From Marsupella aquatica (Eukaryota > Plantae > Marchantiophyta), in assembly GCA_973895155.1 (NCBI GenBank), contig OZ316894.1, positions 24,736,709 through 24,800,708 on the forward strand: a DNA stretch of 64,000 bases. The letters are read 5' to 3'. Both the position numbers and the translations under genes were made by a program. The notes below the pieces were generated by a model. The model searched no databases, had not been told where the DNA came from, and saw nothing but the letters and a program-made list of their open reading frames with translations. This document shows positions 23,219-50,400 of this stretch, piece after piece; the first letter of the stretch is position 1; every line of letters begins with the position of its first letter.

Positions 23219-24553
23219 ATGCTCGAGAGAGCTACATTTATGGCCGTGATAAAGCCAGAGGAGGAGGCCGATTCCCTGGAAGTTCCGGTAGTGGCGAAGA
23301 GCACAATGCCGTCTGGGACTACTTCGTTGCCTTTAATTCAGTCGTCCATCTGGCTGGAGACCTTCGATGGAGTGATTCACGAGGTCGAGCGGGAGGTCAG
23401 CATGCTATGTCCGCTCTTGCATAGAGAAGTTCTGCAGAACAGCCAGGGGATCTCGAAAAGATCAGCCATCGCTCTCCCCAGTCAGGTTGGCCCCAGCATT
23501 CTTAAACTAATTCTTGAATACTGCCGTTTTCATCAAGTTCCCGGTCGCTCCGATAAAGAACGAAAAATGTTCGATGAGAAATTCATCAGACTTGATACGA
23601 GAAGGTTATGCGAGCTTGCGTCAGCTGCAAAGAGTTTGGATATGAATCCGCTAGTAGACCTCGCCTGCCGGGCGCTCGCGAGAATGATCGAGGGAATGAC
23701 ACCTGAAGAGATGAGGGAAACCTTTCATTTGCCCGACGATCTGACAGAGGAGGAAAAACTAGAACCGGTAAAAATCACAACTGATGACCCGCGAATTAGA
23801 TTGCTCAACCAGCTGTATGCGAGGAAGAGGAGAGCGCTTCAGGAAAAGAAGCGGCGGAAGGATGAAGGAGCGTCAGTTGGTCAAGCTAGTTCAACTGAGG
23901 ATGGGCATAAAGACGACCGCTCTGTAGACGATCTTCTGTCGTTCATTGACGGTAGTGGGCAAGATGGGAAGGCGACCAGGAGAACGAAGTCGAAGAAGAA
24001 AAGGAATAGGAAGAAGAAAGAGCAAGCCAAAGACTCCAGCTTGGCAGAAAGTCCCGAAAACAGGACTCAGAGTACACACTCCACGGACCACACCCGGCAG
24101 TCAGCGGACGATTTTAGGGACAGACAGGAAGCTAAAGTTATTGGGGAAACTGAGATTGCCACAGATGGAGGGTTGGGCTATGATTCTGCAGAGCTTGACG
24201 AGGAAGACGATGATGGCTTGGATCCTGAGATGAAAGAGAGGCTTGATAGGGAAGTGGAGGACTTCGCTAGGAGGCTCAATTCCGGTTGGCCTGATCGAAT
24301 ACAAGAGATTCTTGCTTTAGCGTCCTCTAGTCAGGAAAGGGGCCGCACTAGTTTCCCGTTGGTCTCGGTTCGTTCTCCCGACTCGTGTTACGGTGAGTCT
24401 GCCAACTCTAGGCCTGCAGCTCAGAATAATAATATTCGAGAGGTTGCTGTTCAGAATGGGGGTAGCAGTGAGGAAGCGCAGAGGAGGAAACCTTCCACGG
24501 AATCATCGTCACAACTTAAGTTTAGGCTTCCCGAGGCCCTTGCACAAAAATAG
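23219..24553 (+). CDS. ASK21: SKP1-like protein, type II (ASK20/ASK21-like), single coding exon, 444 aa (possible start at 23240, MAVIKPE)
   Basis: Uninterrupted ORF with type-II SKP1 signatures: MAVIKPE, IWLETFDG, ILEYCRFHQVPGRSDKERK.FDEKFIRLDTRRLCELASAA.SL, PEE.RETFHLPDDLTEEEKLEP, DDPRIRLLN.LYARKR, DDRSVDDLLSFI, DPEMKERLDREVEDFARRLNS.W. Confidence 0.93.
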   Translation: MLERATFMAVIKPEEEADSLEVPVVAKSTMPSGTTSLPLIQSSIWLETFDGVIHEVEREVSMLCPLLHREVLQNSQGISKRSAIALPSQVGPSILKLILEYCRFHQVPGRSDKERKMFDEKFIRLDTRRLCELASAAKSLDMNPLVDLACRALARMIEGMTPEEMRETFHLPDDLTEEEKLEPVKITTDDPRIRLLNQLYARKRRALQEKKRRKDEGASVGQASSTEDGHKDDRSVDDLLSFIDGSGQDGKATRRTKSKKKRNRKKKEQAKDSSLAESPENRTQSTHSTDHTRQSADDFRDRQEAKVIGETEIATDGGLGYDSAELDEEDDDGLDPEMKERLDREVEDFARRLNSGWPDRIQEILALASSSQERGRTSFPLVSVRSPDSCYGESANSRPAAQNNNIREVAVQNGGSSEEAQRRKPSTESSSQLKFRLPEALAQK

Positions 24554-33573: not shown

Positions 33574-35762
33574 ATGGCGCGTCGGCTCTTCGTGGTCATC
33601 GCGGTGGCCTGTGTAGCCCTGTTCCTCTTCGTCTCAGGCATGTTGATTTTTCCTTTGCTTGTGATTCTGTTGTTTCACCGGAAAAGATTTCCGTTCTGTC
33701 TACTCCTTTTCTTTCATTCGATGAAAACCTATCCGAACGCAATAGTTTCTCTCCGGATGGTTCCATAGAATTCGATGATTACCCTCCGATGGTTTCTGTT
33801 ATTCTTCCCTTATCATCCGCTTCTCGAAACTCTCGGTGTCATCGGTCAACTTGTTTTAGGTTTGTATTGGCCCCAGAATGATCTTAAAATGTTGGCTCTA
33901 GATCGTCGTCATTTCTCACGCTGGAGTTCGAAAGCTTTGTGACTGAGTTGCACTGGTGACCGTTAGCTGTTAAATCGATTCAATCTATGGCCTTCCTGTG
34001 TGTGCAATTTAAGACTCGAAAGGTTTGCTGTTGTGATTCGTGCAGTCACTGCCAAGGAGGAGAAGGATGTCTCGGAGCTGCAGATTGGTGTGAAGGTCGG
34101 AATTCCAGATCTCGGCTGATGTGTTTGCCGATGGAGTATGTGTTGTCTTTGCATAGTCGACGGTGGACTAATTTGACGTGGTTTGCGTTTGCAGTTTAAG
34201 CCGAAGGCTTGTGAGATAAAAGCACACAAGGGGGACAAAGTGAAAGTTCATTATCGGGTGAGGTTTCGTTTTTGAGTTTATAGCTCCAAGATCGTTGATG
34301 GCGTTTTCTACTGTTGTTTCATTTGTAGCTAGGTCGGTTTCAAGTTGGAGAAACCCTTTTTACTCTTTGCAGTCCTAGACCTATCAAAAAAGTAATATGA
34401 GTATCACTTTCACCGAAGCCTAGTCTTTGTTGGGATCTCTGGTTTGCTACGCGTTCATGAACAAGATTTCGACCAAAAGAGCAGACCCTTCAATTGAAAA
34501 CTAATATTGACAACACCATGGATATTATAACACCCATTTTGAGTGTTCTCGGAGGTTACTTGTGACAATAGTATTAGCAGAACCTGTGTGTTGCTGTGGC
34601 TAAAAGTTGATAGGGCAGTCTGTGTGCCATAGGCCGCCACAGCAGAAATTGTCTTCATCAGATTCTGCCTGGCGGAAGACACTTTCTTCTCGACGCCCTG
34701 AAATAATGTCCTTCCCTTTACTTTGGTTGCACAGGGGGCACTTACAGATGCGAGTGTTTTTGATGCAAGTTATGATAGGGGTGAACCCATTGAATTCACA
34801 CTTGGTACTGGCCAAGTCATAAAAGGTCAGTCTTTTTACTAGTCAGTTGACCTTCTTGCCACTGGATGGACAGGGTAAATTAGTCGATGGCACAGAATTT
34901 GACTCCAGTGTTGGAAGGGGAGTACCTTTTGATTTCACGCTAGGTCAAGGTGCAGTAATCAAAGGTATGTGTTTGTCAAGGTGCATGAAGTTGTGGTGCT
35001 AATTATGACGATTATACGTCGAACCATGTTTTGTTTGATGGAATCGCGCATCGGAAACGAACTTTCTATGTTTCTATTAAAAAAATCATGTCAGCTACAC
35101 AGCCGAACAACTGTACTCTACCTGCCTTCTAAAGCGGTGGCTGCAAACTGAGAGTTCTGTTGCTTCTGATGCTTTCACAATTCAGTCATTCACACCGCTT
35201 TGCAGTCAGTAAATGGGGCCTTGGTTGGCAGTCTACGCTCGGAAATCCATTATCATGTACAAGCGACTTTGTCTGCTTTGCTGTCTATTTCATTAATAGT
35301 GCAAGTTGCACCTTGTCTAGCTTCGGTGTCATTATATTGTGCAGGTTAAATATCTTTAAGATGCTAACCGGGTGTGATCTATCAGGTTGGGATCAAGGTC
35401 TACTTGGTGCTTGCCTAGGAGAAAAACGCAAACTGAAGATTCCTTCCAAGCTTGGCTATGGGCCAGGAGGATCTCCTCCCAAGATTCCAGGTAATTTTTT
35501 TAATTTATGGAGGTTTCTGCAGGGCCGCATTATCGTTGTCATGTATTCATTCATACCTGCAGTTGAACAATATGAACCAAGTGTCACTTCATATGACCGC
35601 TATGCACAAGCAATACCTTGGCTTGGTATCACAGCAATTCTAATGAACGTTGCGACCATTTTTGGGTTGTCATTAAATGCAGGTGGTGCTACGCTCATTT
35701 TTGACACAGAACTCGTTGGCATAAATGGAAAAATGTACACTGAAGATCATAGTGAGCTCTAA
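33574..35762 (+). CDS. FKBP15: ER-luminal FKBP-type peptidyl-prolyl isomerase (FKBP15-like), 150 aa, with two alternative copies of exon 4
   Basis: Exons 33574-33637 (signal peptide; GC donor), 34046-34095, 34195-34257, [34735-34825 or 34874-34964], 35386-35490, 35683-35762. Motifs [58 protein letters not shown]-terminal HSEL is ER-retention-like. Confidence 0.93.
34735..34825 (+). CDS. FKBP15: FKBP15 exon 4A ([30 protein letters not shown])
   Basis: ACAG| acceptor with an upstream pyrimidine tract, 91 nt, G|GTCAG donor, phase 0 to 1. Confidence 0.88.
34874..34964 (+). CDS. FKBP15: FKBP15 exon 4B ([30 protein letters not shown])
   Basis: ACAG| acceptor, 91 nt, G|GTATGT donor, phase 0 to 1. 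Paralog of exon 4A. Confidence 0.85.
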
Positions 35763-42495: not shown

Positions 42496-44993
42496 ACGAA
42501 ACAAGCAGTGCACGTCCCTCCCATCACCTTAATATCAGGCACTGACAGATACACTTTGCAGGTCAGAGCGTCCCCGCTCACGGCCAGATCATTACAGGAA
42601 GTTCACACAGGGCAAAGACAGCGAGACACTAAGTTATCGAATGCAAAAGCTCAATTTCACGAAAAAAATTCGTGTTGAATTCTATCCCACCTGAGAATCA
42701 ATAAATGAGTTGGCGTGCTTTCCTTCACAACCAAGGGAAACATTAGCCTCTGTAAGGAAAGACACAACGATGGCGCTCGTGCCCAACTCCATTTGAATCT
42801 ACACTTAGGAGAATTGGATTTCAACACTCACAACCGAACGCAGAATAACTTGTCGAGTGGATTCAAATGACTACAAGCCTGCGAGTCGCTGTCGACTACC
42901 ACAAAAGTACCTGCTAGCGAAGTGTCAAGATGAGAATCTACAGCCTAGCAGATCAAACAGCGATTGATCAAAGACCCAATACCTGCTGATGGAGATCAAC
43001 AGCTGCTTACAGCCGTATCTGACAAATTCTTAAAAGCTCACATGGAAAAGCACCTCGGGTTTTACATAGGACTGCCCTTGTGGGAGGGCGCTACCAAATT
43101 CACAAACTACCGTAATCGATGCCTTGACAGCAAATGGCGCACAGCAGAGGATCAACCCAAAACCGGGAAGGTTCAACCGGTACCGGCTCTTGTTGGAAAT
43201 AAAGTTTTCCTCTTAACCTTCCTATCTGTTCTGCACCGGATCCTCTTGCCCTCCGGCGCATCCGCTTGAAAATCCAGTTGCATTAGATCTCTCACAAAAG
43301 CTTGATGCCATACCGCACTACAATGCCCCGATGATGAGGAAGTGAGATGGATGTTTGACTGCGGAGGTCGGGGTAAACCGATAACTCAATCCGCGCTGGC
43401 CGTGTCTGTGTTAAGAAGATAACGGAGTACCTATCCGTCGGCCGGTAAGCTGACGTCAACAATTTGTTATAGCGCTTCGGATTGATTTCTGTTGCAAGGT
43501 GTAGTTTCGTCTTTCTCTCTCTTCCTGACGATGCACGTCGTAATGCGGTTCTTCTCTTCTGGTCCATTCCGATTGAAGATTTGGTTCTCGACCTTTGAAT
43601 TGCTCTTTTGTCGGATCAATTTAGAATCGGAGGCATTTGGATATCCGCTTTCTTCGATTCGTTTGAGTTGCCCTCAGGGTGGTGTAGTTTGCAGTTCCTG
43701 ACTGGCTTCGGTGAATGCATTCCTCCAAGTAGCCTATTCGTTCTCTAGGGAAATCCATTATCCGGGATCGGGAGGTCTTATGTGCGTGAGCAGCGTTGTA
43801 AAATGTGAGATTACCTGTGTCTTGATACAATCCGCAAGTTATTCTTTAGCAGTGGCTTTCGAGTTCTGCGCATTAAGCGGGATTAAAGTAAGTAAGAAGT
43901 CCTTTCAGTCGGTAAGACACGCACCGCCATAGAATCGTCCATCCCGTTTCAGGCGAGATTGTGTCTATCCCTTGTCGTTCGATCCAATCTTAGCAGGCCT
44001 CCCTTTCTTTCGACAGATGCTCCCGGAAGAGATTGTGCTTCCTTCGTTACCAATCGACGGACTGGTAAATGATTTGTTTCCATTCCTCATTATTGATTCT
44101 GTTCGATGGAAGCGCTGCGGAAAACTGATGAAGACATTGGTCCTTTCACCGTTACAACTCCTTGCATTTCTTTACCGTCAAGCTGATTGTCTCTTCCGTT
44201 CGCTATCATCCTTCTACTTCTGCTCATCAATGCGTTTTCAATTCTCGATTTTGGGTACCCCTTGTGAAGGCATATTTAGAAAATTTCACCGCATTTTTGT
44301 AGTATATTATTGCACGGTTGTCAAAGAAGGATTTCCCTTGACAAGCTTCGTCTCCGGTTTAGGTTAGGGAGGAATCCGGATCACCTCGACTTAATTGAAT
44401 GACGCACATTGTAGCCTTTGTACATTCTCGAAATTTTGGGGGTTTGAGAAGCGCAGTAGCTGATTACGGTCTGAAAAGGTTCGACGGCAGCGTGTTTCCC
44501 TAGATGTTGTTTGAGGTTCCTGCGAACTGGTTGGAAATTCTCCGGTCCTGTTTTGCCAGAAATCTGATGATCACGTGCTCTTAAGGACATTTCTTTGACT
44601 CTCCTGTAAAAGCTCAAAATTCGTGATGTGACCGCCCTGATGCTATGAAGATTGTTTGTGAGAACTTTGTAATTTGTATCCGTGTTCTTCCTCAAGGAAT
44701 CGTCGTCTGCTTGCGGAGACGAATGTATGTTTAGTACAATAATGTATCCGCAGGCTTAGATTAAAATGGATCCATTTTGTAATAAACATCGTTGGGTTGT
44801 TTTCTCACATTGTAGGCTATGAGCGAGGAATTGGGTCGGCCAGTTCGGAACTGCCAGCGATAAATGTCCTGTGAAGCGGGGACGAGGATCGTCCAACGGT
44901 TTGTTTTGCTGTAGCGTATGGTGTGTTTGATTAAGTTACTCTGGAGGGCTCGCTTGCTGTCAGGTGTTCATGTGAAACGAGGAGCTTAAAAGG

Positions 44994-45989
44994 ATGGAGT
45001 TCCCAAGGCGGTGCCCCACAAATAACGTCTTGTGTGTGATAATTTGGTTCCTGTTGACATGGATTGCTGTGGAACACATCTTCAGTTCTGGAAAGCAAAG
45101 TTTGGGCCTGCTACCGGACCGGACTTACGAGCCGCAGGGGTTCAGGATACAGGCAGCGGAACGGACACAGGGCAGAATGTGCGATACAAGGGATGCCCAT
45201 TTTCTGGACGATATAGAGGCCGATATGAGCGCGGAGAACGCCTGGAGTCAAATGAAATGGATAGGACAACCTGCACTGTGTCCAGTACGAGGGGAATTGA
45301 TCGAGCGATTAGATGATGTCAACAACTTTAGGAGAGGTTACAGCCTCAGATTCTCTGGCAACGTAGAGGACAGAATGCACATTTTGCCCTGGCTACTGGG
45401 CACCAAAGTAGATTTGAACAAAAGGAAGAGAAGGGTGTTTCTGGACCTAGGCTCGAATAGTTTCTCATCGAGCCTTCAATGGTTTCTGCGAATGTATCCA
45501 TGCGACTTCACGGAAATCCACGCGTTCGAGGTGCTCAAGGACCTCCTCAAAATTCCAAAGCCTTTTGACGAGGGGAGCAACAGAGCAGCTGAGAATCCGA
45601 ACTCGCGAAGAACAAAGCAAACGCCCGGGATTCCTGGATGGATGCTGAAGCGGATCAAAGTACATAACAAACTCGTCTCCGATGCGGATGATGCGATGAC
45701 CAATTCAGTTAACATCACCAGGTTCATAAAACACGATCTGAAGCTCCAAGCAGAAGACGCCGTGATTGTGAAAATGGACATCGAGGGGAGCGAGTGGCCG
45801 ATTTTGCAACGGTGGCTGAACGATCCGGAGATGGCCCAAATTGTGGATGAGATCTTCGTGGAGGTTCACTACAACCACGCGAGCATGTACAATTTTAACT
45901 GGTATAGATTCAAGCGCGCTAGGACTGAAGCGAAAAGGCTTCTCGCGGATTTAAGGTGGAAAGGATTCTATGCCCATTCCTGGCCTTAA
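44994..45989 (+). CDS. FkbM-like SAM-dependent methyltransferase-fold protein with N-terminal membrane anchor, 331 aa, single coding exon
   Basis: Long ORF with a hydrophobic N-terminal segment (VLCVIIWFLLTWIAV) and FkbM/Methyltransf_21-like motifs VFLDLGSN, IHAFE, VIVKMDIEGSEW, VDEIFVEVHY. Confidence 0.78.
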   Translation: MEFPRRCPTNNVLCVIIWFLLTWIAVEHIFSSGKQSLGLLPDRTYEPQGFRIQAAERTQGRMCDTRDAHFLDDIEADMSAENAWSQMKWIGQPALCPVRGELIERLDDVNNFRRGYSLRFSGNVEDRMHILPWLLGTKVDLNKRKRRVFLDLGSNSFSSSLQWFLRMYPCDFTEIHAFEVLKDLLKIPKPFDEGSNRAAENPNSRRTKQTPGIPGWMLKRIKVHNKLVSDADDAMTNSVNITRFIKHDLKLQAEDAVIVKMDIEGSEWPILQRWLNDPEMAQIVDEIFVEVHYNHASMYNFNWYRFKRARTEAKRLLADLRWKGFYAHSWP

Positions 45990-47189: not shown

Positions 47190-47400
47190 TGTTGCAACTA
47201 TCTTGTAAGATTTCTTTTAGGACTGGCCCTACTATCACCAGATTCGGCACCTCTCTCTACTTTATCTCTACCGCTATCTTAGCAGTCCATCTTAGGTCCC
47301 TGGGTCCCCTTCGGTCCCTCTCTCCGTTACTTATAGTGGCACCTCTTGTTTAGTCTCTTGCAGCAAGATAGACCAATAGCTGCTACCACCAGTTCCATCA
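47190..47400 (+). repeat. 5' LTR (211 bp)
   Basis: Matches the 3' LTR apart from substitutions and a ~21-bp indel. Confidence 0.93.
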
Positions 47401-50400
47401 CATGTCTCAGCACTCACTCGTCACTGGTCTCCCTGCTCTTCCACGTGTCCAGAGAGTCTGCGACACCTGCATGGTGACTAAGCACCACCGGGAAAAAATC
47501 CCCAAGTACTCCACTATGCGGACCTCACGACCTCTCGAATTACTCCACACCGACCTCTGTGGACCCATTCGCGGTCCTGCCTCAGAAAAATACATTCTCA
47601 CGTTGATTGACGACTTCACCAGATTCACTTGGGTCTATTTTCTCACCTACAAAAGCAAAACCTTTGACAAGCTCAAAGAATTCAAACTCTTGGTGGAAAA
47701 GCAATTCAATCTTAGCATCAGTTGCCTACGTTCTGATCGAGGGGGCGAGTACCGGTCGACTGACTTCCTCACCTTCTGCAGTCAACATGGCATTTGGCGT
47801 CAATTCACCGTCGCCCCGACCATCGCTCACTCCCCACATCAAAATGGCATTCCTGAATGCAAGAATCGGACCCTTCTTGAAGCCGCACGAGCAACACTCA
47901 TCAGCTCTGGTATTTCTCTTCATCTCTAGACTGAAAGCATCCGCTCTACTAACTATCTCCAGAATCATTCTGGAACTCATGCTCTTCACCAATGCACACC
48001 GTTTCAGGCTATCACCGGCTCCAAACCGGATCTCAGTCATCTTCACATCCTCAGTTGCACGGCTTACGTTCTGATTCCTGCTTCCCACCAAACCAAACTT
48101 GGCATAAAGGCCATTCGCACCACACTTCTCGGCTACGATGACGAATCTAAAGCTTATCATTGTTATGATGCAACTCGTCGCCGCATCCTTATATCTCGCG
48201 ATGTTACTTTTGATGAAAATACTATGGCTGCCTCCCACCCCGACCCCACTACTGTCATCAATCTCTTTCACTCAGTCCTCCTTGATGACCTCGCCAGTGC
48301 TCCACCAATTGACGACATCCCACCAACATTTCTCCTTCCCGAACTTCCAGTTCCAGAGAGGGCTCACATTAACGTGCCAGCTCCAGAGCAACTTCCAGCT
48401 CCAGAGGGGGCTCACATTGACGCGGCAGCTCCAGTGGCTTTGGCGCCAGAGGGGGCACTTCCAGTCTTGGATCACATTCCTGATATTCCTGATAATCCCC
48501 CACCAGCTGTTATCCCTCCAGCTACTCGACGCTCACTTTGAACTCGTCAGATCCCACCCTAGCATCACGATTATGAAATGAGCACGAATCTCGTTGAAAC
48601 TACTGGACCTGATTGCGCTAAACTCACTATTGCAATGGTGTTACAAGACCCAGAATGGGTCAAAGCCATGCAATCTGAGACCAAGTCTCTTATTGACATG
48701 GGGACATGGGATCTTGTCTACCTGCCCGCAGGACGCAGGGCACTTATTGCTAAATGGGTCTTTCGAGCCAAACCTGACTCAACTCGATTCAGACTCAAAG
48801 CACGCCTAGTCGCCCGGGGCTTTGAACAAAAATTCGGCATTGACTACAACAAAACTTTTGCGCCCGTGGTCAAATGGTCCACACTACTGGCCATTATTGC
48901 CCTCGCTGTTGCAAATGGCTGGGAATTACACCATATGGATGTCATCACCGCCTATCTCAACGGGACTCTCACTGAAGAAATGTACATGCAGCAACCACAA
49001 GGCTTTGAAATTCCTGGGAAAGAGACAATGGTATGCAGACTACGAAGGTCCCTCTATGGACTCAAGCAATCTCCTCGTGAATGGTACAGCGAGATTGACT
49101 CACACCTTCGAGACACAGGATGGACACCCAGCCCTTGCTGACCCCAATCTTTACTTCTGCCATTCTGAGGGCGCTATCATAATTCTCATGTTATATGTTG
49201 ACGACCTTTTGATTCGGTAGTGATCCACAGAAAATTGCCAATATCAAAATTCATTTGAAAAACAAATATCAAATGAGCAATCTTGGCTTAGCTCAAAAGT
49301 ATCTTGGGATCAAATTTTTTCACACTCCCACCAGCCTTATGCTTCATCAAACATCCTACTACCAGGAATTAGTTAAAGAATTTGCCATCACCGACAGTGC
49401 ATCTATTCCTCTGCTTGAAGGACATGATTTAACTTCTGACACTCATACTACTTCATTTGATCCCACTGCCTATCGTCACGCAGTCGGCAAACTCATCTTC
49501 CTTACTCATACCAGGCCAGATATCTCTTATGCCGTAGGCATAGTAAGTCGGTATATGAGCTCTCCCCAAACCAAGCATTGGGAATCCGTTCAACACATTC
49601 TTCGCTATCTACACGGCACTACAGATCACGGCCTCACTTTTCTCCGCTCCTCCACGTCTACCAACCTGCAAGGCTTCACCGATGTTGACTTCCTAGTCTG
49701 TACCGAAACCAGGTGCTCTCGTGGTGCTTATCTACTTCAACTCGCTAGCGGGCCCATCTCTTGGTCCAGCAAACTCCAAACAACAGTCTCTGACAGCACT
49801 ACCGAAGCTGAATACAAAGCGCTTTCTATAGGGGCAAAAGAAGCAGTTCACATCCGCCACCTCCTCACGGACCGAAATCAATCCTACCTACACTCTCCAG
49901 GTACCCCTTGCCTCCTCTAACTCTGTCATTCATTCTGATCTAGCTCGCGCCTCCACACCTACCTTCGCCAATGTTCACCTCTACTGTGACAACCAAGGCT
50001 CGATCAAATTAGCTAGAAATCCCGTCTTCCATGCTCGCACCAAACACATTGAAGGGAAGCACCACTTTATTTGGGAACGAGTGCTAGAGGGGGAAATCAC
50101 CTTGTCCTACATCAATACAAACAAAAACCCAGCCGACATTCTCACAAAACCACTTCCACGACAGAAATTTGAGAAACACAGATCCTTTATTGGAGTAAAA
50201 TCCATTTCTGACATACATCTCAGGTCTCCCTGATACTATCATCTACTCTTTACTCCCTCAAAACCCTTCTACACCTTTTCGCCCCAGGAAATACTCTGCC
50301 TCTGCTAGCGTTCAAAAACCTTGGTGACAATTCTCGGGGTATCCGACCACCTCTTCATTTGCTTCTACCCAGGTAGTATATATCCCTGGCCTCAACCCAC

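Follow-up and report, generated by a model that had tools for sequence, protein, structure and literature searches.

Homologous exons that are spliced in a mutually exclusive manner have been surveyed largely in animals (Hatje et al., 2017, PMC5740500; Lam et al., 2021, PMC7954323), and the pairs described there have equal length, the same phase and recognisable homology, together with a length that is not a multiple of three and variable residues near a functional site. Swaps of this kind tend to preserve the fold and to change specificity (PMC7954323). Human clusters in which the donor lies less than 50 nt from the branch point are placed in a steric class, which numbers only 57 (9%) (PMC5740500); for mammals a minimum intron length near 70 nt has been given (PMC11850230), and no corresponding value for liverworts was met with in the literature consulted. 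For plants, Kassiopeia reports 99 internal mutually exclusive candidates in Arabidopsis, none of them then annotated as such (PMC3923563), and a study of Riccia fluitans reports 169 MXE calls among 19,045 events, with no mention of FKBP in its main text (PMC13642808). The rice proteins OsFKBP15-1 and OsFKBP15-2 each have a single FKBP domain, an N-terminal hydrophobic stretch and an xxEL end; at the F46 position, Ile is given for the former and Phe for the latter (PMC3012604, Table 1).

Here we describe two copies of exon 4, termed 4A and 4B, in an FKBP15 gene of Marsupella aquatica, which are alike to the surveyed pairs in all of these respects, including the short distance from donor to putative branch point, but which belong to a plant gene and are known from sequence. 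The exons predicted in Arabidopsis and Riccia were recognised by the same criteria. Rice makes the Ile/Phe split with two genes and this locus with two exons, and both rice proteins carry Gln where the isoform containing 4B (isoform B) carries Ala. The pair is of a known kind that is rare or sparsely documented in plants, and 4A and 4B are absent from the literature searched, in which no exon swap in a plant FKBP was found as judged by title or the start of the abstract. Mutually exclusive exons were reportedly described by Bowman and colleagues in 2017 in Marchantia FKBP12, which would be a similar case in a liverwort gene of the FKBP family, but in a different gene with a cytosolic product. 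If that pair concerned FKBP15, the present finding would already be known; the clustered FKBP15 proteins of Marchantia, like those of Riccia, Sphagnum and Diphasiastrum, show one segment type per species, which suggests that the Marchantia pair is not this cassette.

The window, by which we mean the whole 64,000-nt stretch of DNA that was analysed, is plant DNA rich in repeats, and the gene is laid out at 33574-35762 in seven coding segments (Table 1). A GC donor after exon 1 (window 33637-33639) makes intron 1 a non-canonical GC-AG intron. The closest named relative found with 4A as query is from the liverwort Calypogeia fissa (91% over the matched part), and among the best 120 of 537 matches to the C. 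fissa protein, its nearest relatives are Marchantia proteins and angiosperm FKBP15-1 and FKBP15-2; on this sequence evidence the source is likely a leafy liverwort and the gene a plant FKBP15, with FKBP15-1/15-2 proteins as its closest relatives. Either copy of exon 4, joined to the other five exons, yields a 150-aa frame ending in HSEL. Both isoforms read from the sequence have this end and a hydrophobic N-terminus, and the family (PMC3012604) leads us to predict that the product sits in the ER. Elsewhere in the window, a 444-codon frame (23219-24553) has Skp1 domains in its first 180 residues and is far longer than a usual Skp1, a 337-codon frame (44976-45989) carries DUF7870 with a weak FkbM-type methyltransferase match, and a Copia-type retrotransposon pol (integrase, SH3-like, RVT_2) is split over several frames at 47372-49920.

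Table 1. Coding segments and splicing features of the FKBP15 gene, in window positions.
Feature	Position	Strand	Description	Support
Exon 1	33574..33637	+	Initiation codon; hydrophobic N-terminal stretch, likely signal peptide	Matches N-terminus of C. fissa P0018/P0028
Exon 2	34046..34095	+		AG/GT sites; frame continuous with homologues
Exon 3	34195..34257	+	Carries Y26 equivalent; phase 0 at its end	
Exon 4A	34735..34825	+	91 nt; plant-type copy, F46 = Ile, E54 = Gln	28/30 residues identical to C. fissa
4A-4B spacer	34826..34873	+	48 nt; branch-like TTGAC at 34847-34851	No difference listed in organism B
Exon 4B	34874..34964	+	91 nt; FKBP2-like copy, F46 = Phe, E54 = Ala	
4B tail	34944..34964	+	21 nt, behind internal AG (34942-34943)	Same pattern in both C. 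fissa models
Exon 5	35386..35490	+	W59 equivalent and 80s loop	
Exon 6, coding part	35683..35762	+	HSEL then stop, likely ER retention	C. fissa ends alike

Both copies of exon 4 follow a CAG acceptor, end at an AAAG/GT donor, and are entered in phase 0 and left in phase 1. They agree at 17 of 30 residues and at 55 of 91 nucleotides, and ten of the 17 common residues use different synonymous codons. The residue and codon counts, the matched lengths, splice sites and phases, and the 48-nt spacer are as the original prediction had them, and every figure of that prediction was reproduced. By the Nei-Gojobori method with Jukes-Cantor correction, dS between the copies is ~2.0, near saturation, and dN is ~0.39. 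As a DNA pattern the two exons match once in the window, in none of 100 shuffles, and nowhere in the metagenome contigs. Each copy matches positions 17-46 of the Pfam FKBP_C profile (PF00254), with 29.9 bits for 4A and 29.1 for 4B against a curated cut-off of 21.1; exon 5 scores 34.9. In human FKBP12 (PDB 8vjj), the counterparts of exon 4 positions 1-29 by alignment are chain residues 29-57, or residues 28-56 in mature numbering, in agreement with the earlier placement of the equivalents of F36, D37, R42, F46, F48, E54, V55 and I56 in this exon. The acceptor of 4B is of lower quality than that of 4A (T fractions 0.3 and 0.5, respectively), which counts against mutually exclusive use.

Some smaller features of the cassette were observed as well. 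Codon 6 of 4A (34750-34752; window 34746-34752) is Ala at the G33 equivalent, a position that is Gly in all 133 plant segments compared and in C. fissa 4A; in organism B, no difference from the window is listed there, so that an unusual change is found in the plant-type copy too. Eleven nucleotides of the 4B tail (34944-34954) are repeated exactly at 34975-34985, 10 nt into the next intron. The donor hexamer of 4A (34826-34831) recurs 16 nt further on in the spacer (34842-34847), where its use would shift the frame.

The sole branch-like motif found in the spacer, identified as a motif match only, is TTGAC, whose A is 25 nt away from the 4A donor and precedes the 4B acceptor by 23 nt. The motif had been predicted about 22 nt past the 4A donor, and it does start at spacer position 22; the steric exclusion that was deduced from it gains from the 25-nt distance, which falls within the 50 nt of the human steric class (PMC5740500), but is itself still inferred. 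Were this A the branch point of 4B, U1 on 4A and U2 on 4B would clash and could not be bound together, and the 48-nt spacer would not be removed as an intron. A second lock would be provided by the reading frame. A transcript with both copies meets a stop at codon 91, immediately past the 4A-4B junction, and one with neither meets a stop at codon 70, as expected from the earlier claim that including both or neither shifts the frame; transcripts of either kind would presumably be degraded. We consider it likely that 4A and 4B are spliced as mutually exclusive exons, with exclusion enforced by steric clash and frameshift. One gene would then make two 150-aa prolyl isomerases, predicted to reside in the ER, with the 4A form as the usual one and the 4B form as a minor or regulated one. 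No spliced junctions were found in the contigs of four runs over the locus. Competing RNA pairings of the Dscam type (docking site and selector) were also considered as a mechanism of exclusion; none occurs among eight inverted repeats and the fold z-score is 0.13 for this single-species sequence, and neither result lends support to RNA structure as the mechanism.

That the duplication is old, with both copies under purifying selection, had been proposed from the codon differences, and the comparison with other plants is in agreement with it, as is the dS value. In a set of plant FKBP15 segments (133 parsed of 141 proteins), conservation reaches 95% or more at 16 positions, of which 4A and 4B each keep 15. 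When 36 random changes, the observed nucleotide distance, were introduced into 4A under neutrality, 17 or more identities were kept in 40 of 200,000 trials, and 15 of the 16 conserved positions in 0 of 200,000. Further evidence comes from organism B, a relative represented by two runs of one study; the near-identical run X1, from which the DNA of the window may itself derive, is left out of the count. Across the 230-nt cassette of organism B a single site, in 4A and synonymous, is changed relative to the window, compared with 11 listed differing sites and an indel in the next 196 nt of intron (Fisher p=0.0017), a difference that may be overstated because haplotype bubbles near the cassette mean that the single contig there may be a mosaic. 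Exon 5 of the same organism, 105 nt long, carries at least 5 changes, judged synonymous when read by hand. Subject to the mosaic caveat for organism B, these sequence comparisons support selection on both exon 4 copies. Separately, runs X3 and X4 reveal two haplotypes of organism B over window 34464-34746: the first equals the window and the second diverges from it by 4-6%, a pattern to be expected in a hybrid or polyploid.

Relatives bear on whether 4B is used at all. Both C. fissa models (P0018 and P0028; C. fissa loci CAM6101452.1 and CAM6102222.1) read 4A and then seven extra residues, which correspond to the final 21 nt of 4B, behind an in-frame internal AG. This acceptor, absent from the original prediction, is apparently the one that both models use. 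The presence of 4A joined to a match of the 4B tail makes it very likely that a 4B-like exon lies behind 4A in C. fissa; the joined form may be either a compromise of the gene predictor or a real minor isoform. In the window, the same join keeps the frame and adds seven residues. It could be argued from the two models that use is confined to 4A, whether or not the 21-nt tail of 4B is added through the internal AG (a 118-nt intron and a 7-residue insertion), the rest of 4B being untranslated, and the internal acceptor does have a fair pyrimidine tract (Y fraction 0.65, compared with 0.60 for the main 4B acceptor) and escapes the steric limit. However, the first 70 nt of 4B keep the F36/D37/R42/P45/F48 motif in frame at a dS near 2, which needs selection at the protein level; moreover, a gene predictor facing two exons would give the same compromise, and a form with 4A and the tail can coexist as a minor isoform with mutually exclusive use. 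We regard exclusive use of 4A as quite unlikely for these reasons.

We give about the same small weight to the reading that 4B was once functional and is now silent or decaying. It would account for the lack of any 4B product among the matches searched, and 4B does carry residues that are rare or absent in the 133 plant segments, namely Val31 (1), Glu35 (1), Val40 (0) and Val44 (0). These odd residues, however, look like those of non-plant FKBP2 rather than random damage, no change in 4B or the spacer is listed for organism B, and C. fissa has retained the tail. A third reading, that the pair chiefly sets the amount of protein through double inclusion and degradation of the stop-bearing transcript, is suggested by the immediate stop after a 4A-4B join but is highly improbable, since nothing would oblige a poison exon to preserve the FKBP motif and the 25-nt distance from donor to branch point argues against that join.

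Mutually exclusive use of 4A and 4B predicts products of both kinds, and those seen are unequal: one liverwort-like single-exon product has 4A only and none has 4B only. The former is a continuous protein of a relative (P0019, a 1,024-nt contig), which is likely derived from mRNA. No full-length 4B-type protein with liverwort flanks was found among 16 matches to the 4B query, nor any 4B-type isoform among the best 120 of 537 matches to P0018, where a high rank would be expected; the queries were the 4B exon and P0018, and a 4B-type relative may be missed by them. A search of 50% clusters with 4B returned mostly multi-domain FKBPs. At the genomic level, a Logan assembly (P0185) has an open frame through two copies of exon 4 with the same boundaries, a 59-nt spacer and a separation of 50 codons. 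Its copies have 22 of 30 residues in common, and the one with Phe46 stands ahead of the one with Ile46, opposite to the order in the window; for both reasons this may be an independent duplication. Another sequence (P0267) has one 4B-like segment (23/30), apparently with the same boundaries. Together, the C. fissa tail and P0185 support the view, at the level of sequence, that the cassette is not private to the source genome. Close tandem copies of the segment occur in two of 318 collected proteins, P0185 and P0264; the latter (NCBI/JGI) has an animal-type FKBP2 frame with a second, partly degenerate segment copy 53 codons on, and is possibly another duplication of this exon. In a family scan of metagenome contigs, 55 of 80 loci among the matches listed carry the exon motif, each once, and none is bryophyte-FKBP15-like.

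The two copies also differ in kinship. Of 143 plant segments, 124 are nearer 4A, 15 are nearer 4B and 4 tie, whereas among 219 other segments, a biased set in that 4B was the query by which many were retrieved, 152 are nearer 4B, 47 nearer 4A and 20 tie. The best PDB match of 4B, and the best solved relative both of it and of the family, is human FKBP2 (PDB 4nnr, 2pbc), a non-plant protein. In a tree of 34 rows and 30 columns, all named plant segments, that of Coleochaete among them, form a supported group (95/90) to which 4B does not belong; a constraint uniting 4A and 4B in one clade was not rejected (p-AU 0.144). By sequence, 4B appears to resemble non-plant FKBP2 more than plant FKBP15, a likeness that the original prediction did not mention and which could reflect either an old form that was retained or drift back toward the general FKBP consensus. 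For orthology of 4B to a moss exon, a C-terminal run is shared with Ceratodon and the tree groups the mosses with Marchantia; the clade test is uninformative (p-AU 0.4). A bolder proposal, which we hold to be doubtful, is that the cassette is very old: 4B would be a surviving pan-eukaryotic FKBP2-type exon that has stood beside the streptophyte-type 4A since before land plants, with splicing in liverworts switching the ER foldase between an ancestral pocket and one specific to plants, while elsewhere one copy was lost or the Ile/Phe split was recreated through gene duplication.

Isoforms A and B, containing 4A and 4B respectively, differ at 13 residues. Seven of the 14 classical FK506/PPIase ligand positions (PMC3012604, Table 1) lie in exon 4 and only two of these differ, namely F46 (Ile/Phe) and E54 (Gln/Ala), with the 40s loop among the sites of the remaining 11 differences. 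The exchange would leave the fold and the catalytic core as they are and would alter the pocket wall at F46, the E54 position and the 40s loop. Among the 133 plant FKBP15 segments, the F46 position is Ile in 84, Phe in 42 and Leu in 7, and Ile versus Phe at this position is ordinary variation among plant FKBP15s. The predicted differences at F46, E54 and the 40s loop are present, but the functional weight that had been placed on them was too strong, with two of 14 ligand positions affected and one of these changes commonplace. At the key positions of the rice table, isoform A is identical to the OsFKBP15-1 row and isoform B departs from the OsFKBP15-2 row only in Ala at E54, the positions outside exon 4 having been counted by hand. 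As exon swaps elsewhere tend to preserve the fold and to change specificity, the choice between 4A and 4B would likely have the effect of a modest tuning of substrate or partner preference.

The pair is compact, common to at least one other liverwort and clear in its steric anatomy, and could serve as a minigene to test how the plant spliceosome makes an either-or choice. Because two rice genes differ by this Ile/Phe switch as well, exon duplication and gene duplication become directly comparable. In Arabidopsis, FKBP15-2 is reported to be needed for ER-stress immunity and to be inhibited by an oomycete effector (PMC13387897); more speculatively, having one gene supply two pockets could be relevant to client range or pathogen pressure.
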